Assembly (NCBI RefSeq): GCF_054482595.1
Contig: NZ_JBTHVH010000001.1
Origin: a plasmid
DNA: 64,000 nt
Direction: 5' to 3' (one strand)
A program made the translations under genes and the position numbers. Below the pieces are notes generated by a model. It was not told the DNA's origin and ran no database searches. It worked only from the letters and a program-made list of their open reading frames with translations. Below are positions 3,680 through 25,892 of the stretch, in pieces; position 1 is the first letter of the stretch, and each line of letters opens with the position of its first letter.

Positions 3680-4480
3680 ATGCAACAAACATTCAATGCG
3701 GATATGAATATATCAAACCTTCATCAAAATGTCGATCCTTCAACCACTCTGCCCGTTATTTGTGGTGTTGAAATTACGACCGACCGCGCTGGCCGTTACA
3801 ACCTTAATGCTCTACACAGAGCGAGCGGACTCGGTGCCCATAAAGCGCCAGCTCAATGGCTAAGAACGCTGTCAGCTAAACAGCTCATCGAAGAGCTTGA
3901 AAAAGAAACTATGCAGAATTGCATAGTTTCGTTCGAAGGCCGTGGCGGCGGCACTTTTGCCCATGAATTGCTCGCAGTGGAGTACGCTGGTTGGATTTCT
4001 CCCGCGTTTCGGCTGAAGGTAAACCAGACATTTATCGACTATCGAGCCGGAAGATTACAACCTGCTATTCCGCAGAGTCTCCCTGAAGCTCTCCGTTTGG
4101 CTGCCGACCTGGCAGAGCAAAAGCAACGGCTGGAACAAAAAATGCTTATGGATGCACCTAAAGTCGAATTCGCCGAACGCGTTGCTACCGCCAGCGGGGT
4201 TCTAATCGGCAACTATGCCAAAGTGCTCGGTCTGGGCCAAAACTATCTCTTCACCTGGTTGCGTGATAACGGAATTCTGATCGCAACCGGTGAACGCAGG
4301 AACGTCCCCAAACAAGAATACATATCCCGTGGGTATTTCACCCTTAAAGAAACCGTGATCGATACAAGCAATGGAAGCAGGATTTCTTTCACGACTCGTA
4401 TAACCGGCAAAGGTCAGCAGTGGCTGATGAAGCGATTGCTTGATACTGGTGTGCTGGTACCTGTCGCGGCAACGCGCTAA
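3680..4480 (+). CDS. kilA: KilA (KilA-N plus KilAC domains)
   Basis: 266 aa; C-terminus paralogous to the Ant C-terminal domain; position upstream of repL. Confidence 0.7.
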   Translation: MQQTFNADMNISNLHQNVDPSTTLPVICGVEITTDRAGRYNLNALHRASGLGAHKAPAQWLRTLSAKQLIEELEKETMQNCIVSFEGRGGGTFAHELLAVEYAGWISPAFRLKVNQTFIDYRAGRLQPAIPQSLPEALRLAADLAEQKQRLEQKMLMDAPKVEFAERVATASGVLIGNYAKVLGLGQNYLFTWLRDNGILIATGERRNVPKQEYISRGYFTLKETVIDTSNGSRISFTTRITGKGQQWLMKRLLDTGVLVPVAATR

Positions 4481-4509
4481 CAGACGTAGTAAGAACCACC
4501 AGCATTGTA

Positions 4510-5355
4510 ATGCTGGCTAAAGTCACTTTCCTGAGCTGTATAACGATGAGCGATTTTACTTTTTCTGGCTATGAATTGGCCTGCTTTGTAACACACTCCG
4601 GTCTATCCCGTAGCGCCGGGCATATCCTGTCGCAATGTGCAAATCTAGCGGCAACAACCAGTGAATACTTCATTCACAAGCCTCACCGCCTGATCGCGGC
4701 AGAAACTGGTTATAGCCAATCAACCGTCGTTCGTGCATTCCGTGAAGCTGTAAACAAAGGAATTCTGTCTGTAGAGATTGTTATCGGCGATCACCGTGAA
4801 CGTCGCGCTAACCTGTACCGGTTTACACCATCCTTTTTGGCCTTCGCACAACAAGCCAAAAATGCGCTGATTGAAAGCAAATTAAAGATCTCTTCAGCGG
4901 CAACCAAGGTTAAAGCTGTTCTCGCTAAGACATTGGCTTTATTTAATTTTTTATCCACACCCCCATGTCAAAATGATACCCCCTCCCCCTGTCAGGATGA
5001 CGTGGCAATAAAGAATAAGAAGTCACAAGTTAAAAAAACAAAAAGATCAGTTTCCGGCGGTGCCGGAACGACCAGACTCAAAAAATTGACTTCATGGATC
5101 GCTGAGGCAAAAGCAAAGGCTGACAATCTGCGGTTATCCAAAAAACGCGCTCAAAAACATGAGTTCAAGCAGAAAGTAGAGGCGGCAGCGCGGAAATATG
5201 CTTACCTGAAGAACAAGCGTTCTCCTGATATTGACGGGGTATCAAACTTCGATAATTTGCCGCATTGCATGACGGTAAACGAAGCTCTTAATGCGGTTTT
5301 AGCCAAAAATAAAGATAACGAACAATGGGGTATACCGGCAGGATTCAGAGGGTAA
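4510..5355 (+). CDS. repL: lytic replication initiator RepL-like protein (oriL expected inside)
   Basis: 281 aa, follows kilA downstream of a C1 operator as in the P1 lytic replicon. Confidence 0.6.
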   Translation: MLAKVTFLSCITMSDFTFSGYELACFVTHSGLSRSAGHILSQCANLAATTSEYFIHKPHRLIAAETGYSQSTVVRAFREAVNKGILSVEIVIGDHRERRANLYRFTPSFLAFAQQAKNALIESKLKISSAATKVKAVLAKTLALFNFLSTPPCQNDTPSPCQDDVAIKNKKSQVKKTKRSVSGGAGTTRLKKLTSWIAEAKAKADNLRLSKKRAQKHEFKQKVEAAARKYAYLKNKRSPDIDGVSNFDNLPHCMTVNEALNAVLAKNKDNEQWGIPAGFRG

Positions 5356-8377: not shown

Positions 8378-9193
8378 TTAGCCAAGGCGCTTACGGCGCA
8401 GTTTCATTGACTTTTTGCGGGCAAGTTTTGCCGCGCCGGTCTGGGCTTTTCGACGCGCTTTTTTCAGCGCCGATTTTTGAGCCGCAGTCAGACGTTTTTT
8501 ACGCAGGCGTTTACGGATGAGTTTGATCTCACCGTTACGAACAACCTTCTTAAATGCTTCAGTCAGCATTTCATCAGAAGTGCCAGCAACAACAAACGCC
8601 GCTTCCAGTTCGTCGCGGTCGTCGCTATCTAAACCAGCGATAGAGGCACCAACATCAGCAGCAGCGTCGTCGTCTTCATCGTCAGCCAGTGCTTCGATCA
8701 GGTCATCATCTACACCGCATGCTGCGAGGAAGTCAGCAACATTTGCCCATGCTTCGTTATAGGCATCGTCCTGTTCTTCTGTAACTTCGGAGTCGTCGTC
8801 ATCAGAGATACCAGCGATAGCCTGAACGAAACCATCAAGGGAGTCGAAAGTCAGATCACCGCTATCAGCCCAGGCGAAAACGGCGTCGGCCGCATCACTC
8901 AACGCATTCTGCATAGCACTTCGATTTGCAGCTTCCAGAATCATCTGGTGCGCCTGTTCGACGGTCCATTCTTTACCGTCTTTCCCTTCCAGGATTTGCT
9001 CAGGAGCCGGGGCAGATGGAACGTTATCGTTAGTCTGTGCCGCCGGTTCCGGATTATTATTAATAACCGGATCTGTTGGCGGTTCGGCGCTTGCTCGGGC
9101 AGACTCCATCAGCTGCACAGGATCAGAGTTCAAAGCGAAACGGGACAGTCCATTCCCCAAAAATGCCCCGGATTGAAAAAAGTTTTTGCTCAT
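8378..9193 (-). CDS. late protein with strongly acidic body and lysine/arginine-rich C-terminal tail (271 aa)
   Basis: Asp/Glu-rich runs followed by a basic C-terminal tail; directly downstream of the sheath-like gene. Confidence 0.45.
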   Translation of the reverse strand: MSKNFFQSGAFLGNGLSRFALNSDPVQLMESARASAEPPTDPVINNNPEPAAQTNDNVPSAPAPEQILEGKDGKEWTVEQAHQMILEAANRSAMQNALSDAADAVFAWADSGDLTFDSLDGFVQAIAGISDDDDSEVTEEQDDAYNEAWANVADFLAACGVDDDLIEALADDEDDDAAADVGASIAGLDSDDRDELEAAFVVAGTSDEMLTEAFKKVVRNGEIKLIRKRLRKKRLTAAQKSALKKARRKAQTGAAKLARKKSMKLRRKRLG

Positions 9194-12784: not shown

Positions 12785-13786
12785 TTAAGGCTTCGGCTTT
12801 TTATCGAGGCTCTTTCTAAGGATATGCCCAATCATCCTGTCGAGTTCTTCCTGTAGCTCTTTTGAAAGTCGATTAAACTCATAAGAAAATGCACGGCCTT
12901 TCACGCGCTTCCTTGCAAAGCGATCCTTGTCCTCAAATTTCCATAATTCAGTAACTACGGACTTATCTTTAGAACCTTTATCCGTGAGTAGTGAGGCTTC
13001 CTTTGTTATCAAGCGCAGGATTTTATTTTTAACTTCATCTTCGGCCATTTCTTCAATGGATAAGATGTCGTTTATTTCCGGGGATATGTTTTGAATAAGC
13101 TGATCAAACTCTAAATTCTTGTTCCCCATTTCGTCGCCAACAGCACAAAGCGTTTTGTAGTCCGAAAAGGTTAATTCCGACTGCACAGGGAAAAGGGCGA
13201 CTAATTCTTCCGGAGCACTCGCTGCCTGGAGAGCACGCGTGACCTTCGCCTGAGACAGCCCTTCTTTGGCTGCAATATCCTTCTGACTCATCCCATCATT
13301 TTTCATTCGCATCAAACGCAGACCTATTTCTCGAATGCTGTGCTGCAATGCTGTCTGAACGTCTTTCGCTAAATTTTGCGCTTCCTGAACGCTGATCTCC
13401 TGGTCCGTGACTAAAACCCGCAACCCTACGTTCTCTAAGATGGCAGAAGCTCGACGCCGGGAACCATCCAAAATTTCAATTTTCCCTGTAGCCCGTCTGA
13501 CACCTATTGCAGGGTAAAATTGCTGATGCTTAATAGTGCTTCGGATACTTTTTAATGATTTTGGCGTAAGAGATGCCTGGTCACGCCCGTTGTTATGCTG
13601 ATCAACAAAGGTATCGCTTTCTACCTGGTTCGGAGGTATTACCTCTTCAATAAATGTGGCCTGGCGACCAGTTGATAACTTGAATACCTGCTCGACTCGA
13701 TCGCCAGAGGCTGAAGAACTATCAAATCCGCTTAATATTGAAGGATTAAGGGTTCGCCCAATTGTTGGTCTGTTTTTCTTTGACAT
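12785..13786 (-). CDS. parB: partition protein ParB
   Basis: 333 aa, directly upstream of parS and downstream of parA. Confidence 0.8.
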   Translation of the reverse strand: MSKKNRPTIGRTLNPSILSGFDSSSASGDRVEQVFKLSTGRQATFIEEVIPPNQVESDTFVDQHNNGRDQASLTPKSLKSIRSTIKHQQFYPAIGVRRATGKIEILDGSRRRASAILENVGLRVLVTDQEISVQEAQNLAKDVQTALQHSIREIGLRLMRMKNDGMSQKDIAAKEGLSQAKVTRALQAASAPEELVALFPVQSELTFSDYKTLCAVGDEMGNKNLEFDQLIQNISPEINDILSIEEMAEDEVKNKILRLITKEASLLTDKGSKDKSVVTELWKFEDKDRFARKRVKGRAFSYEFNRLSKELQEELDRMIGHILRKSLDKKPKP

Positions 13787-13802: not shown

Positions 13803-14999
13803 TCAGTTAGATCTGATAAATTCAATACGGTCAAAAACTGCTTTAGCAAAATCTTCCGCAGCAATTCGCGCGTTCTTCAATGCATCAGCACTACCAACAT
13901 ACGTTGCCGGGTTAGCTGAAATAACAGTGTCAAAAGACTCGCCGCAGCGTTCAAAACCGTCAAGGCGAGGGAGGACAACATCAAGCATATCCCCACCGAA
14001 CACTTCTTTAGCCAGGCTATGGCAATACTTATGGTCTGCCTTGTTACTCAACTTGGACATAAAACCAATGTTAGTTGCAAGCTGACACTCGCAGCCTTCA
14101 TCCGAAATGAGTTTCACCAACTCAGGAAGGCGGGCAACGTATTTAAGCGATGAGTGGAAATCAACCGTTGCAGGCGGCAGAGGTGTAAACAGTATATTGG
14201 CCGAGGCCAAAGCATTTTTCAGGAAGGCGTCAAGGTGAGGACCACTATCAACGAGGATAAAGTCATAATCGCTCTTCAGCTTATCAATCACATTCTCTTT
14301 CAGGACAGCATGGATGTTCTGACCCGGTAGATGCTCATTGCACAGCTCTCTCCAATCGGATGCAATAAAGGCATCGTCAATCGACGCAGGCATAACGTCA
14401 ACCCCAGGTACAACAGAAGGAACAATAAACTCCTCTAACAGCTCTTCACGGCTTACATTCTGCAACATAGCCTGTGCAGATGTTGCGTTTACGATACCAA
14501 TAGAGTGTTTATGGCTTAAAAACATCGTTGCTGAAGATTGCGGATCAAGGTCAATAACCAGAATCCTTAAATCTTCCATCAGAAGATGAGGGTGGGCACG
14601 CATTGCATGCGCCAGAGAAACCGTCGATACAGTTTTTGACACACCGCCTTTAAGATTGGAGATGAAAATCACATACGCTTCGCTGTAGCGATCCCGGTAT
14701 TTTGGCACTCCGCGATGTTCATATATGTCAATGATGTTCTGAATTGACATCGCATATTTCATTGAAGAGCCAGCAGGGCGTTTATCGAAAACATAACCCT
14801 TTTCTTCCATTTCACTTACGGCATAGTCAACGTTCGCACGAGTCAGTAGAGGCAATTTTGCCAGTGCCGCTTTCGCATAGACCTGGTAAAACTCGTTCGC
14901 GTGTAGCTCATCCTTTTGCAACTGTACTTGTTCAGTCAGAACATTGAGCATTCTATTTGCTCTTTGAGCAACCTTGTGAAGCTGGCTGGAATCACTCAT
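13803..14999 (-). CDS. parA: partition ATPase ParA
   Basis: 398 aa; deviant Walker A KGGVSKT; begins MSDSSQLHKVAQRANRMLNV as P1 ParA. Confidence 0.85.
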   Translation of the reverse strand: MSDSSQLHKVAQRANRMLNVLTEQVQLQKDELHANEFYQVYAKAALAKLPLLTRANVDYAVSEMEEKGYVFDKRPAGSSMKYAMSIQNIIDIYEHRGVPKYRDRYSEAYVIFISNLKGGVSKTVSTVSLAHAMRAHPHLLMEDLRILVIDLDPQSSATMFLSHKHSIGIVNATSAQAMLQNVSREELLEEFIVPSVVPGVDVMPASIDDAFIASDWRELCNEHLPGQNIHAVLKENVIDKLKSDYDFILVDSGPHLDAFLKNALASANILFTPLPPATVDFHSSLKYVARLPELVKLISDEGCECQLATNIGFMSKLSNKADHKYCHSLAKEVFGGDMLDVVLPRLDGFERCGESFDTVISANPATYVGSADALKNARIAAEDFAKAVFDRIEFIRSN

Positions 15000-15138
15000 C
15001 GAAAGTCATCCTTTATGCTGTATTTTTGAATTTAATTAAAAATGCTGCATAAAATAATAATGTATGCGTAGATGCTTGTACATAGCATTCTCTGCATGTT
15101 TGGTTCATTTTGCACGATTGAGAGTTACAAGGAGGGCA

Positions 15139-15161
15139 CAAAAAAGCCCCGTTCAGGGGCA
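15139..15161 (-). terminator. rho-independent terminator after the 15168 gene
   Basis: Hairpin GCCCCTGAACGGGGC followed by T-run on the minus strand. Confidence 0.55.
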
Positions 15162-15167
15162 TCAGTG

Positions 15168-15572
15168 TTATTTGCTAAGAGCAGCGAATAATCGTTCGAA
15201 ATCGATAGTATCTATAGCACGCGTAAGCGCCGGAAGTTCAGCCTCAAAGTACCCGTGTCGATCGTAAAAGAAGGGACCGAAGAGCGAGGCATGTTGGATT
15301 CTACTTCGCCCCAGCCCGGACACACAGTTAAGCCCATTACCGGCTAAAAGGCTAAAAAACTTCTCTGGATTATCGTGGTAAAGCTGGGAATCAATGGTGG
15401 CGGTTAACTCTTCCATAGGGAAGCACACCCGCCCTGTATCCCAGGGATATTTAGTCCGAAGCATAAACATTGCTTTCAGCAATTCACATTGAGCGCGGAT
15501 CGCGTCCGGTTCATAGCCAGATATGGAGACATAAGCCACGTCCCTCATTCCTGCGTCATCTTTGAAAGTCAC
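15168..15572 (-). CDS. hypothetical protein (134 aa)
   Basis: ORF with its own terminator; no recognisable motif. Confidence 0.45.
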   Translation of the reverse strand: MTFKDDAGMRDVAYVSISGYEPDAIRAQCELLKAMFMLRTKYPWDTGRVCFPMEELTATIDSQLYHDNPEKFFSLLAGNGLNCVSGLGRSRIQHASLFGPFFYDRHGYFEAELPALTRAIDTIDFERLFAALSK

Positions 15573-15698
15573 GATAGAAGTAACATCCAGCTCTTTTTCG
15601 AAAGAGCAAGCAGCATCTACTGGACGCTGAAGTAAATCATTCGACTTAATGCGCTCGAGAATCCCTCCCTACATATCATTTAGATATTCGATATGAGC

Positions 15699-15977
15699 CT
15701 AAACCTTATCAAGACACTCTCGTGTAAACCATTCAGTATGCCCGCCACCGGCGCTTTTCTCCCACGGCGCATTCCAGGGGAAAAAGGTTGCGTGTAAAGC
15801 CCGCTCAAGATTAACTATTGCCAAACGCGTACCACGATAGACCCGTGAAAGCGCAAAATCGGGACTCACTTGTAGCCCTTTAAACCGTGCCAATGGACCA
15901 CATGAAATGCCGATTTTAAAAGTATCTCCATTCTCCGGCACCAGAACGTAGAGGTAGTGTTGTTTCTCTTCTTGCAT
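15699..15977 (-). CDS. small standalone T5orf172/GIY-YIG-like domain protein (92 aa)
   Basis: YLYVL...KIGIS...GGHTEWF motif arrangement. Confidence 0.5.
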   Translation of the reverse strand: MQEEKQHYLYVLVPENGDTFKIGISCGPLARFKGLQVSPDFALSRVYRGTRLAIVNLERALHATFFPWNAPWEKSAGGGHTEWFTRECLDKV

Positions 15978-15984
15978 ATCAATA

Positions 15985-16240
15985 CCACTGCTTGATGAGA
16001 ACCGCGCAAATGTTGACTATGCGCGATGTGACTACAGTCAAAAGTTGACTGTAGTCGATTTAACTCCACCAAAGATCGACTATGTAAGATATTGTCGGGA
16101 GAAACGTTGACTATACGCGATGAAATGCCCCTAAAAGCCATCTCAATAGCGACTTGCAGAATATTGACGCCAGCAAAAATCCACCAGCGTCAACGAATGT
16201 CGCCTATAGTCAACTTCTCGCTATCGCATATAGTCAATAT
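15985..16240. repeat. incA: incA-like iteron array downstream of repA
   Basis: Multiple copies of the core (C/T)(A/G)TAGTCAA(C/T) in both orientations. Confidence 0.65.
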
Positions 16241-17124
16241 TATGGATTGCGCTTATGGATCTGGAAGCCGATTTTCCTGCCGTTTTTTATCTCTGAAAAT
16301 TTAAGATATTCAATAGCTTCCAAATCTTTCATGGCTTTTCTGATAACGCTATTTTGCACGCTAACGGATGATTTGAGATTAAGCCTCGCTCTAAGGCGCT
16401 CAATGCTGACAGGTGCCGGGTTGGCGGGTAGAGCCTCAAAGAATGTATACAGTACCTTGGCCGTCTCTTTGCGCCCTAGTTTATCCAGCATCTTCAGCTT
16501 CAGGATTCGCTTATAGTCAACATAGTAAAGTTCAGATAGCTGTTTCTGCGGCTGGATCTCGATAACATCAAGCTCGGTATTCAGGCTGCTATATGCCAAC
16601 AAGTTGACGTTAATGTTATTGAGATGACCTTTTGCCGCCGGGAAGCGGAATTTGACAACTGTCTGCTGAATGCGTGTCAGAGAGTCATCAATACTTTTAC
16701 GGAACGCCTTTGAAAGGCGCTTACGTGGATAGCCGCATCGATCGGCAAACTCGGAGAATGGCAGGGTGATTATGCCGTCATCATCAGGTGCGTAGTCAAA
16801 CAACGCGGAGGTTATGCCCACCCACACCTTAAAATCAGTATCCATATCCAGGCGTGGACCATGAATTTCAATTCCCTCATAGCCTTCCTGCTCAACAATT
16901 TTGAGGCTTGATAGTTCTTCAGTTGCGTTCGTTGTGTTTGTTGTAACTGACGATCCGCGACGTAGCGCCACATTGGTAGATTTTAAGGTTGGCACAAACA
17001 CACCTAAGCGCAACAAAGCGATGGGTTGTATAGTGCTGTTGTTATTGGGCTTCAGGCTGTGGATTTCTCCTGTATTTCCTGCAACTTCTTCAACGCTAAG
17101 GAAGCCTTTACTTTCTTCCGGCAT
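16240..17124 (-). CDS. repA: plasmid replication initiator RepA (iteron-binding), divergent from P1 RepA
   Basis: Flanked by iteron arrays; preferred ATG at 17124 with GGAG Shine-Dalgarno (track start 17160); blocks such as GPRLDMDTDFK and PLALLRLGVFVP resemble P1 RepA. Confidence 0.75.
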   Translation of the reverse strand: MPEESKGFLSVEEVAGNTGEIHSLKPNNNSTIQPIALLRLGVFVPTLKSTNVALRRGSSVTTNTTNATEELSSLKIVEQEGYEGIEIHGPRLDMDTDFKVWVGITSALFDYAPDDDGIITLPFSEFADRCGYPRKRLSKAFRKSIDDSLTRIQQTVVKFRFPAAKGHLNNINVNLLAYSSLNTELDVIEIQPQKQLSELYYVDYKRILKLKMLDKLGRKETAKVLYTFFEALPANPAPVSIERLRARLNLKSSVSVQNSVIRKAMKDLEAIEYLKFSEIKNGRKIGFQIHKRNP

Positions 17125-17164: not shown

Positions 17165-17440
17165 GATGGCTGTTATCAACAGCTGTGAATATTCAGACTC
17201 TAAAATCGCTTACAGTCAATGTTTCTGTCGCGTATAGTCAACAATAAATCGCGTGCAGTCAACAATAAATCGTGCACAGTCAACATAAAATCGCGTATAG
17301 TCAATGTTGATCCCATTTCAGGCCAGTAATGACGCGGCTTACAGCGATCCGGGATCTTCTTTGGATCTTCCTAGGTTCTCTTTAGGATCTGTTTATTGGA
17401 TCTATGCTGTGGATAAGTTGAATAAACCGGCCAACAAAGC
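17165..17440. other. oriR-like plasmid origin: five direct iterons, five GATC-containing heptamers, DnaA box
   Basis: Five repeats of AAATCG(C/T)G(T/C)A(T/C)AGTCAA 17195-17310; GATC sites 17345-17395; TGTGGATAA at 17411-17419. Confidence 0.7.
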
Positions 17441-23858: not shown

Positions 23859-23934
23859 GATGGTGTAGCTCAGCGGTTAGAGCGGTTGACTGTTAATCAA
23901 CGGGTCGATGGTTCAAATCCATCCACCATCGCCA
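23859..23934 (+). tRNA. tRNA-Asn (anticodon GTT)
   Basis: Manual cloverleaf: acceptor GATGGTG/CACCATC, D arm GCTC-AGCGGTTA-GAGC, anticodon loop CTGTTAA, T arm GATGG-TTCAAAT-CCATC, CCA encoded. Confidence 0.85.
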
Positions 23935-23936
23935 AT

Positions 23937-24012
23937 GCCGGTTTAGCTCAGTTGGTAGAGCGCCTGCCTTGTAAGCAGGATGTCAGCGGTTCGAGTCCGT
24001 TAATCGGCACCA
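23937..24012 (+). tRNA. tRNA-Thr (anticodon TGT)
   Basis: Acceptor GCCGGTT/AATCGGC (one G-U), anticodon loop CTTGTAA, T loop TTCGAGT, CCA encoded. Confidence 0.8.
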
Positions 24013-24014
24013 GC

Positions 24015-24100
24015 ACAACAGGTAAGGGTATTTTGCGACGTCGGAGATCGCCGAGCTTGGCAGAGGGTTCGAATCCCTACGAAGTACCCTTACCGTTGTG
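24015..24100 (+). other. structured tRNA-like element: about 16-bp stem enclosing a T-loop-like GGTTCGAATCC core; not a canonical tRNA
   Basis: CACAACAGGTAAGGGTA pairs with TACCCTTACCGTTGTG; starts immediately after tRNA-Thr. Confidence 0.4.
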
Positions 24101-24744
24101 ATGAAGTGCAGCTCTTTGAAGCAACCAGAAGATAAGCATCTGGCTTCACAACATAAACCGCAGGAACGACCAATAAACGGTAGTCCGTATGGAGAACACC
24201 CCGTTGAGGAAGAGGCCTGGCCGGAACCGTAACCGGCACTACAACGTTGAGAACACTGGCGTAACGGGGTCATATCCCAATCTACGAATAAATGTTGCGT
24301 TGCAGCGTGACAACCAGTGTTCTCAACATTGTGGTGAATGCACAGGCTGATGTGCCGCAACTACAGTAGTGCGCGCTTTGCGGGGCTTGCTACAACCCTG
24401 TGTCGGAGTTCAGCACCGACCATCACAGTTTGATTCTCTGGCATGAGCATAACGCTGAAATAAGTCCAGCCTGGTGCGGCCCGATCACCCGCCGTTAGCT
24501 CCACGAAACGGAGCACGTAACAGGTAAGAGCATTCTCCTGTAACGGGTTCATATCCCAATCTACAGGTCCACCAAGAATGCTCTTTCCGTTGCGGTGAAT
24601 GCGGCTAAGCACACGCGGGGAAATGGTTATATCAGTCCATTCATTTCTCCTTGTTTCCCCGTCCACGGTGGATAACCAGCCAAAGGACACCGGGAGGCAC
24701 CCGGCACCGCAGCTTTTTTATTCGTTAAATAATGGAGTGAGAGG

Positions 24745-24981
24745 ATGCAGAACAATCCGAACAAATGTCGAACGCTATGGGTGCGGTTATATATTTATGC
24801 CGTCCTCTGTTTGATTGTGTCACTGGTTCTGTATGTTTGGCTTTTGCCAAATATGATCTCATCTAACAGCACAATACTTGTATTGTTGGGAGTCCTTCTC
24901 GCGCTCATTTACCCGGCTTTCGCAGTAGTCTTTTTTCGTGAAAAAACCAGGAAATTAATTAATGAAAAAAACGTTGATTAG
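24745..24981 (+). CDS. small membrane protein (two predicted TM helices)
   Basis: 78-aa ORF overlapping the start of the SPFH lipoprotein gene. Confidence 0.4.
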   Translation: MQNNPNKCRTLWVRLYIYAVLCLIVSLVLYVWLLPNMISSNSTILVLLGVLLALIYPAFAVVFFREKTRKLINEKNVD

Positions 24982-25789
24982 TGCAGCGATTATTTTGGGT
25001 TCTTTATGTCTGACCGGATGCGATCGGGTAGAGCCAGGTAACGTAGGGATCAAAGTAAATAAGCTGGGGGATGATAAAGGTATCGGTGAAGTAGTTGGCG
25101 TTGGTCGCTACTGGACAGGCTTGAATACTGAAGTTTATATCTTCCCGACCTTTAAGCAAATGAAGACATACGATGAGCCGTTCAGCTTCCAGATGAGCGA
25201 CGGAACAACCATTGGTTACCACATCGGCGTAGCCTACAAGGTTGATCCAGCAAAAGTCACAACGGTATTTCAGACCTATCGCAAAGGTGTAGATGATATT
25301 ACTGATACCGATCTACGCCAGAAGGTTGCAGATGCTCTGAACCGGTTAGCCAGCAAAATGACCACCGACAAATTTATCGACGGTGGCAAATCTGAATTGC
25401 TTGATGCAGCCCTTAAAGACATTCAGGAAGAAATGACGCCAATCGGCATTCAGGTGATGAGCCTCTCTTATGTAGGTAAGCCAGAATACCCGCCAACAGT
25501 TATTGACAGTATTAACGCCAAAGTCACGGCAAACCAAAAAACCCTGCAACGCGAGCAAGAGGTCAAACAACGTGAAGCAGAGGCCAACATGCTGCGCGCG
25601 GAAGCTGCCGGACAGGCTGATGCTATTCGCACAAAAGCCCAGGCCGAAGCTGATGCCATTCGTTTACGTGGTGAAGCTCTGCGCCAGAACCCCGGTGTTA
25701 TGGAGTTGGAAGCGATCAACAAATGGAACGGTACATTACCGCAGTATATGACCAGTAATACCGCTGTTCCGTTTGTTCCGGTGAAATAA
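24962..25789 (+). CDS. SPFH/band-7-like lipoprotein
   Basis: Lipobox LTGC; Ala/Glu/Gln-rich coiled coil near C-terminus. Confidence 0.55.
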   Translation: MKKTLISAAIILGSLCLTGCDRVEPGNVGIKVNKLGDDKGIGEVVGVGRYWTGLNTEVYIFPTFKQMKTYDEPFSFQMSDGTTIGYHIGVAYKVDPAKVTTVFQTYRKGVDDITDTDLRQKVADALNRLASKMTTDKFIDGGKSELLDAALKDIQEEMTPIGIQVMSLSYVGKPEYPPTVIDSINAKVTANQKTLQREQEVKQREAEANMLRAEAAGQADAIRTKAQAEADAIRLRGEALRQNPGVMELEAINKWNGTLPQYMTSNTAVPFVPVK

Positions 25790-25816
25790 AAGCGTAAGCA
25801 AAATTGGCAGTAATCC

Positions 25817-25892
25817 GGCCCTTTAGCTCAGTGGTTAGAGCTGGCGACTCATAATCGCACGGTCACCGGTTCAAGTCCGGTAGGGGCCACCA
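25817..25892 (+). tRNA. tRNA-Ile2 (anticodon CAT, lysidine type; Met not excluded)
   Basis: Sequence closely resembles E. coli ileX as recalled; acceptor GGCCCTT/AGGGGCC, anticodon loop CTCATAA, T loop TTCAAGT. Confidence 0.75.

Follow-up and report, generated by a model that had tools for sequence, protein, structure and literature searches.

The window analyzed here is a 64,000-nucleotide stretch of plasmid DNA (NCBI RefSeq assembly GCF_054482595.1, contig NZ_JBTHVH010000001.1), and its positions 15168 to 15977 hold one gene, not two. The gene specifies a protein of 269 amino acids (aa) with an N-terminal T5orf172 domain, and the copy in the window is a pseudogene, because amber codons 93 and 103 interrupt the 269-aa frame. 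The pair of genes perceived in the window is thus one pseudogene, and the gene itself is a fixed, fast-evolving member of the p0111 replicon cassette of P1-like phage-plasmids. On balance, the intact protein is probably a site-specific nuclease that serves this cassette, resembling either homing endonucleases or the origin-directed nuclease (Odn) of ICP1, and it is dead in this window.

One gene interrupted by two amber codons

The gene and its fragments are laid out in the window as follows.

15168..15977, minus strand: pseudogene of the 269-aa T5orf172-domain protein, recognized by translation, by the intact homologue and by DNA alignment
15977..15699, minus strand: open reading frame (ORF) of 92 aa, fragment 1, the N-terminal T5orf172 / GIY-YIG-superfamily domain
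15572..15168, minus strand: ORF of 134 aa, fragment 2, starting at an internal GTG and holding this gene's C-terminal domain
15699..15701, minus strand: amber codon 93, TTG>TAG, changed base 15700 (in relatives an A on the plus strand)
15669..15671, minus strand: amber codon 103, TGG>TAG, changed base 15670
15160..15140, minus strand: terminator, GCCCC-TGAAC-GGGGC (hairpin 15160..15146) then TTTTTT, 8 nt past the stop codon

When 15977..15168 was translated, a single frame of 269 codons and a terminal stop was obtained, and its sole breaks were the TAG codons at 93 and 103. DNA alignment with relatives showed both stops to be point changes. The intact counterpart in relatives, over the same 810 bp, is an uninterrupted 269-aa coding sequence (CDS), WP_029402478.1, annotated as "GIY-YIG nuclease family protein", of which the window gene is an allele that differs by the two premature ambers. 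PHROG 2876 ("unknown function") covered the full-length protein with an E-value of 6e-194. The 134-aa ORF starts at the first in-frame GTG past the second stop, and in the full-length AlphaFold2 (AF2) model this GTG sits within a predicted beta-hairpin. Given the shared frame and the intact CDS in relatives, the 134-aa "partner" is no more than an artefact that arises when ORFs are called on a pseudogene. The window copy is presumably inactive, with an N-terminal fragment that would lack the DNA-binding tail and a C-terminal fragment that has no obvious translation start.

A sequence-only reading of this stretch had placed the two ORFs and a terminator of their own between parA and the iterons, and these placements were confirmed, including the hairpin and T run just past the stop. 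It had also taken the ORFs for two genes, a minimal standalone nuclease with a partner, that could form an addiction or exclusion module, for example a 92-aa T5orf172 nuclease with a 134-aa antitoxin or specificity subunit. Both ORF sizes are present, and RefSeq gives two CDSs in seven plasmids with the same allele; however, the ORFs are fragments of one frame, two ambers apart, about 98% of related plasmids carry one 269-aa gene, the sampled relatives have a single 269-aa CDS, 384 of 391 records lack the double-amber allele, a homologue of 44% identity is also a single ORF, the shorter frame begins inside a predicted hairpin, and the PADLOC defence models gave no match, so that comparison with relatives refutes the module and we give it almost no credence. 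For annotation, this means that the 92-aa and 126- or 134-aa CDSs in some records are pseudogene fragments and no gene pair. The window copy itself is an ordinary pseudogene.

Nonsense alleles, distribution and selection

The region is 99.6 to 99.8% identical to hundreds of plasmids from Escherichia coli, Salmonella, Shigella and Klebsiella, and identity in the same range was found to the phages SJ46, RCS47, JL22 and phi456. The double-amber allele was counted with a 61-nt probe across both sites in 391 plasmid records. Seven records carried the allele, 383 had neither stop and one had a single mismatch. Six of the seven belonged to a single pig study in Quebec and the seventh to farm soil in the UK, and in these plasmids RefSeq lists a 92-aa "GIY-YIG nuclease family protein" and a 126-aa "hypothetical protein". 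Because NZ_CP020522 carries W103* without the other stop, W103* probably arose before L93*. About 98% of plasmid records have the ORF intact.

Among enterobacterial plasmids in PLSDB, tblastn found the gene in 401 records, all at least 90% identical, and the clade of the cassette's replication initiator (Rep) was found in 398, which gives a ratio of gene to Rep of about 1:1. The gene also occurs in 411 of 5426 complete E. coli genomes (7.6%), nearly always plasmid-borne.

Selection was analyzed in 43 sequences, drawn from IMG/VR and from the loci fetched for comparison. The ratio of nonsynonymous to synonymous polymorphism (pN/pS) was 0.33 for the T5orf172 gene, 0.16 for rep, 0.07 for parB and 0.00 for parA, and the pooled pairwise ratio of nonsynonymous to synonymous substitution (dN/dS) of the T5orf172 gene was 0.32. 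Four different nonsense variants were observed (L93*, W103*, S112* in five loci, and Q228*), and truncations besides. From its fast evolution, its pN/pS and these recurrent independent nonsense alleles, the gene appears to be constrained, yet dispensable for plasmid maintenance and repeatedly lost.

Some records depart from this picture in other ways. Seven of 420 places of the gene in complete E. coli genomes are chromosomal, and these may be integrated or mis-assembled P1-like elements. In phage vB_EcoM-673R5 (ON470615.2, positions 3968-4775), two single-base deletions in homopolymer runs yield two overlapping CDSs, one of which is named "T5orf172 domain-containing protein"; the deletions look like sequencing errors, not frameshifts. 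An E. coli plasmid protein at NCBI (locus tag ABN773_26325) is a chimera of 197 aa, in which residues 80-197 reproduce part of the C-terminal domain exactly, behind an unrelated N-terminus of 79 aa, which suggests a rearrangement or insertion in that plasmid.

The gene within the p0111 replicon cassette

The surroundings of the gene were compared with phage P1. The features concerned are listed below.

14999..13803, minus strand: parA, P1-type, 99% identical to P1; flanking context outside the cassette
13786..12785, minus strand: parB, P1-type, 99% identical to P1; flanking context outside the cassette
15054..15102, minus strand: par promoter region, P1-type, left boundary of the swap, from P1 alignment and annotation; promoter-like site at 15082..15054
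about 16008-16240, no strand assigned: downstream iteron array with iterons in both orientations, between rep and the T5orf172 gene; analogous to incA, not P1 incA
17124..16240, minus strand: rep, p0111-type initiator of the RepB/Rep_3 family, 294 aa, from the RefSeq annotation of relatives
17201..17325, no strand assigned: five origin iterons, spaced at 21 bp and lying upstream of rep, from the iteron search
17325..17440, no strand assigned: GATC-rich stretch of the origin in which similarity to P1 oriR returns gradually; right boundary of the swap

Identity to P1 (99%) spans parB, parA and the par promoter and ends at about 15100, about 45 bp past the terminator. It returns gradually between about 17340 and 17440 and is complete again in upfA. 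The intervening 2.3 kb consist of the origin iterons, Rep, the downstream iterons, the T5orf172 gene and the terminator, which DNA alignment showed to be identical in relatives. This segment is the known "p0111" replicon, a described alternative to IncY in P1-like phage-plasmids, and it replaces the P1 IncY oriR-repA-incA segment in a large P1-like phage-plasmid lineage (SJ46, RCS47, JL22 and pO111). The T5orf172 gene is the last gene of this cassette, and the downstream iterons end about 30 bp short of its start codon. The iteron consensus ATCGCGTATAGTCAAC is common to the origin and downstream arrays and is not the 19-bp iteron of P1.

The ORFs had been described as an insert of about 800 bp lodged inside the P1 replicon, between parA and the incA iterons. 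P1 indeed has no gene at this position, where about 190 bp of non-coding DNA are found, and that part of the description holds. However, the neighboring iterons are not incA, the window Rep is only 42% identical to P1 RepA (E 9e-71), and the 800 bp belong to the 2.3-kb replicon replacement and are no insertion into a P1 replicon.

The expectation that the gene would not be universal in P1-like replicons was borne out in part. With 401 gene records against 398 Rep records and no empty site, the gene is universal among p0111-type replicons, and IncY P1 and P7 lack it. An empty site was sought with an artificial query that joined the iterons directly to the par promoter, and none of about 398 p0111 records matched it. 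A comparison with and without the gene is available between IncY P1-type elements, which lack it, and p0111-type elements, which have it, with flanks of 99% identity; yet the whole replicon differs between the two.

On the coding strand, neither a promoter-like nor a terminator-like site was predicted between rep and the T5orf172 gene, and the first terminator after rep is the hairpin at 15160..15146, at which the predicted rep/T5orf172 unit would end, shortly ahead of the par promoter. With no such site between them, the gene is probably transcribed with rep.

As reported previously, the P1-like element pSvP1 (MN510446) has "2 orfs inserted between repA and parA" (PMC6906374). They may represent this gene, wrongly split, or some other insertion at the junction.

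Two variations of the iterons were also observed. At 16011/16012 the window lacks one 30-bp iteron unit, GTTGACTATGCGCGAAGGTTAATGTGAATA, that most relatives have, and the deletion falls between two direct repeats of GTTGACTATGCGCGA. A tie between this deletion and the loss of the gene was considered and rejected; because plasmids with an intact T5orf172 gene have the same deletion, it is iteron copy-number variation independent of that loss. A further iteron-like copy, ATTCGCTTATAGTCAAC, lies inside the rep CDS at 16505-16521 and is 82% identical to the reference iteron copy.

A distant homologue on a diverged P1-like element

A more distant homologue (P0004) was found on a diverged P1-like element, the 95.7-kb contig 21 of Logan ERR2144811. 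Between positions 9006 and 13338 of this contig, the order rep, iterons, T5orf172 gene, parA, parB and gp23 matches the window, and the iteron consensus is the same. The identities between contig and window are given below.

ParA: 89%
Rep: 84%
gp23: 80%
ParB: 67%
T5orf172 protein, whole: 44%
T5orf172 protein, N-terminal domain: 64%
T5orf172 protein, C-terminal domain: about 31-34%

The tryptophan lost to the second amber in the window, W103, is invariant in this homologue. Because the homologue keeps the gene order, the ORF and the motifs at 44% identity, the gene is old, co-inherited with Rep and a real coding gene, and it far outpaces its neighbors in evolution, the tail most of all. On the contig, the gene caller had read through the iterons and so lengthened the ORF to 311 aa.

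The N-terminal T5orf172 domain

The protein is composed of the T5orf172 domain at residues 8-85, a low-confidence linker at residues 95-134 (about 35 aa) and a C-terminal domain of about 140 aa. For the N-terminal part, the sequence-only assignment to a T5orf172/GIY-YIG-like domain was upheld by profile search: Pfam T5orf172 (PF10544, GIY-YIG clan) matched residues 8-85 of the 92-aa fragment with an E-value of 1.6e-6 (29.0 bits) and of the intact protein with 1.6e-5. The match thus takes in the N-terminal 85 residues, with YxY, KIG, Arg and Glu-Trp-Phe all present. The PHROG family phrog_681, "endonuclease", also matched this domain (E 4.8e-9). In the window the motif residues are Y8-L-Y10, K21-I-G23, R31, H62 and E82-W-F, and the 44%-identical homologue retains Y8, Y10, K21-I-G23, R31, H62 and E82 unchanged. 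We take E82 to be the catalytic glutamate, by assignment from I-TevI E75 and Odn E180.

In the profile search against the PDB, the GIY-YIG structure 1ywl was the only sequence match, and a weak one (E 0.72); its alignment places Y8-x-Y10, K21-I-G23 and R31 on the motif positions. The modeled strand and helix order of the N-terminal domain fits the GIY-YIG alpha/beta fold, at a predicted local distance difference test (pLDDT) score of about 45-57. Foldseek found no significant match to the full-length model in the PDB.

A predicted winged-helix tail

In the family of WP_029402478.1 and PHROG 2876, the C-terminal 140-170 aa lie outside every described family. Pfam gave no match to residues about 95-269 of the intact protein or to the C-terminal fragment of the window, NCBIfam had no family for the 269-aa protein or for Rep, and none of the 5027 models of PADLOC-DB 2.0 matched the T5orf172 protein at E<=1. 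A phmmer search of the C-terminal domain against 1.84 billion representatives returned fragments of the same protein and the one homologue described above, at 34% identity, and a word-indexed search of 5.8 billion proteins returned only five clusters. In IMG/VR, a scan with degenerate peptide patterns yielded 44 loci, none of them less than 94% identical, which made the alignment no deeper.

The full-length AF2 model, from an alignment of three sequences, had a pLDDT of 52. When the C-terminal 153 aa were modeled alone, a predicted template modeling (pTM) score of 0.63 and a core pLDDT of 76-88 were obtained, with the helix and strand order of a winged helix. Structural comparison of this tail model gave the following values.

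MSBI1.176 Rep, 6h24: 5.6; 105/129
pPS10 RepA, 1hkq: 5.2; 104/125
RepE, 2z9o: 5.1; 103
RctB: 4.9; 97
Pi: 4.3; 90

Among the top 50 Foldseek matches in AFDB50, the annotated ones were mostly plasmid initiators (RepB family, "Initiator Rep protein WH1 domain", RepFIB and TrfA), and these initiator matches were weak, with E-values of 0.008-0.5 and template modeling (TM) scores of 0.35-0.5. The AlphaFold database model of the same protein superposed poorly on the tail model (TM 0.24). A winged-helix, DNA-binding tail is thereby moderately supported by the models, and the possible derivation of this tail from an initiator WH1 domain is a lead.

Proposed function of the intact protein

According to the reading we favor, the T5orf172 head, the linker and the winged-helix tail would together form a site-specific DNA endonuclease, with DNA binding supplied by a predicted WH1-type tail of the kind found in iteron-binding plasmid initiators. 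The intact protein would be expressed with rep. The nuclease would serve the cassette in conflicts with other DNA and not in replication or partition, because the gene appears dispensable, evolves fast and has been knocked out repeatedly. It is doubtful that the tail reads the cassette's own iterons, because the tail has diverged strongly while Rep and the iterons have not. The divergence of the tail fits an external, changing target, or simply relaxed constraint.

Several points weigh against this reading. The structural models are of low to moderate confidence (pLDDT 52 at full length and, for the C-terminal domain, 62), and the alignment behind the tail model amounts to no more than two effectively distinct sequences. 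The C-terminal domain is covered by no Pfam, NCBIfam or PADLOC family, and BLASTP and hhalign found no sequence or profile similarity between it and either the cassette Rep or P1 RepA. In addition, the empty-site query found no presence/absence polymorphism of the homing-endonuclease style within p0111 replicons, and transcription with rep was deduced only from the absence of predicted signals.

It is possible, though unlikely, that the protein is an iteron-directed nuclease that acts in replicon competition and drives the p0111 replicon swap. For this, the WH1-like tail would recognize the iterons of a rival, for which the P1 IncY oriR/incA in the homologous position is the obvious candidate and RepFIB-type plasmids are an alternative target, and the T5orf172 head would cut there. 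Given the identity of about 99% in the flanking parA and upfA, repair from a p0111-type genome would then put the p0111 cassette, together with the nuclease gene, in place of the rival replicon. A drive of this homing-endonuclease-like kind would explain the clean replicon swap in P1-like phage-plasmids, and the gene would decay once fixed in a lineage, as in this window.

About equally improbable is a defence nuclease carried as cargo, which would benefit the host against incoming phages or plasmids. T5orf172/GIY-YIG domains are known in conflict systems, fast divergence and dispensability are typical of conflict genes, and the gene is common, being present in 7.6% of complete E. coli genomes. 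However, no match was found among the 5027 PADLOC models, and the gene stands by itself, without a sensor or partner. It is also tied strictly to one replicon type and not to the known variable cargo regions of P1-like elements, and its predicted tail is initiator-like, not phage-sensor-like.

The precedent of CapR, a derivative of T5orf172 homing endonucleases (PMC8096241), suggests a domesticated, non-cutting regulator, whose tail would bind the neighboring iterons or pair with the WH1 domain of Rep and so tune replication, copy number or par expression. The position between the control iterons and the par promoter, the probable co-transcription with rep and the WH1-like fold of the tail would all suit such a regulator, as WH1 is also the dimerization domain of Rep. 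We nevertheless find this rather improbable. None of the nuclease motif residues varies, and the best conserved part of the protein is its nuclease domain (64% against about 31-34%). The tail has fallen to about 34% identity, and over the same distance Rep (84%) and the iteron consensus were kept. Moreover, knock-out alleles persist in circulating plasmids, and selection is far weaker than on rep and par.

A decaying relic, functionless in every lineage and with its T5orf172 similarity a mere leftover, would account for the recurrent nonsense alleles and for a pN/pS above that of the neighboring genes, but it is very unlikely in view of an ORF intact in about 98% of plasmid records, a pN/pS (0.33) well under 1 and a full-length ORF with its motifs kept in the 44%-identical homologue.

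Relation to known systems and significance

The site-specific nuclease favored here may be compared with two kinds of known enzyme. ICP1 Odn (Gp88) is an origin-directed nuclease in which a T5orf172 nuclease is joined to an initiator-like domain and which cuts the origin of a rival at its iterons (PMC8263062). ICP1 also has T5orf172-type putative homing endonucleases and the domesticated non-cutting CapR (PMC8096241). Like Odn, the protein described here joins a T5orf172 domain to an initiator-like DNA-binding domain, which in this case is a predicted one, and the setting would again be a conflict of mobile elements over iteron replicons. The differences are that the DNA-binding domain of Odn is N-terminal and 42% identical to the RepA_N of PLE, an element resembling phage-inducible chromosomal islands, whereas the tail here is C-terminal with a predicted, fold-level resemblance to Rep_3-type WH1 only, and that the gene lies on the replicon itself and not on the attacker of the replicon. 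An Odn-like relationship at the sequence level was rejected, since the BLASTP and hhalign comparisons with Rep and P1 RepA were negative.

Free-standing GIY-YIG homing endonucleases such as I-TevI consist of a nuclease head, a linker and a DNA-binding tail. Compared with these enzymes (I-TevI and T4 Seg), the protein shares an N-terminal catalytic domain of about 90 aa and, as far as the models can be trusted, a linker that is flexible and a DNA-binding domain at the C-terminus. Its gene is intergenic, with its own terminator, in a phage genome, and it has degenerated repeatedly; moreover, it is found in one of two alternative alleles, which differ in their whole replicon, in genomes that are otherwise 99% identical. 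In contrast to them, it belongs to the T5orf172 branch and not to the canonical GIY-YIG branch, and no p0111 cassette copy lacks the gene, which is co-inherited with Rep at 84% Rep identity.

The cassette resembles P1 IncY and RepFIB-type replicons in its origin iterons, rep, downstream control iterons and parAB, and its Rep is homologous to P1 RepA. It differs from P1 IncY in its iteron sequence and in having, ahead of the par promoter and after the control iterons, an additional nuclease-like gene with a terminator.

Both the swap of replicons and the ORF itself were already on record in the literature and in annotation. A functional study of this gene was not found in the phage-plasmid and GIY-YIG/T5orf172 literature, in which the label is "unknown protein". 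The p0111-type P1-like phage-plasmids are common and often carry extended-spectrum beta-lactamase (ESBL) or mcr resistance genes, and the p0111 cassette always carries this uncharacterized gene. Apart from the single pseudogene and its place in the cassette, what may be new is that the tail is an initiator-like winged helix, as modeled, which would give the protein an Odn-like or homing-endonuclease-like architecture. If a site-specific nuclease with an initiator-like DNA-binding tail is indeed encoded, it would be a second, independently assembled case of the Odn principle, in which a nuclease takes over the logic of a replication initiator, and it could account for the exchange or displacement of entire replicons among phage-plasmids that are otherwise identical.

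Other features of the window

Positions 20000-44000 of the window are about 98-99% identical to P1-like phages, in keeping with a Punavirus-type phage-plasmid over the whole window. Three tRNA genes lie at 23859-25892, namely Asn-GTT, Thr-TGT and one with a CAT anticodon that was called Met.

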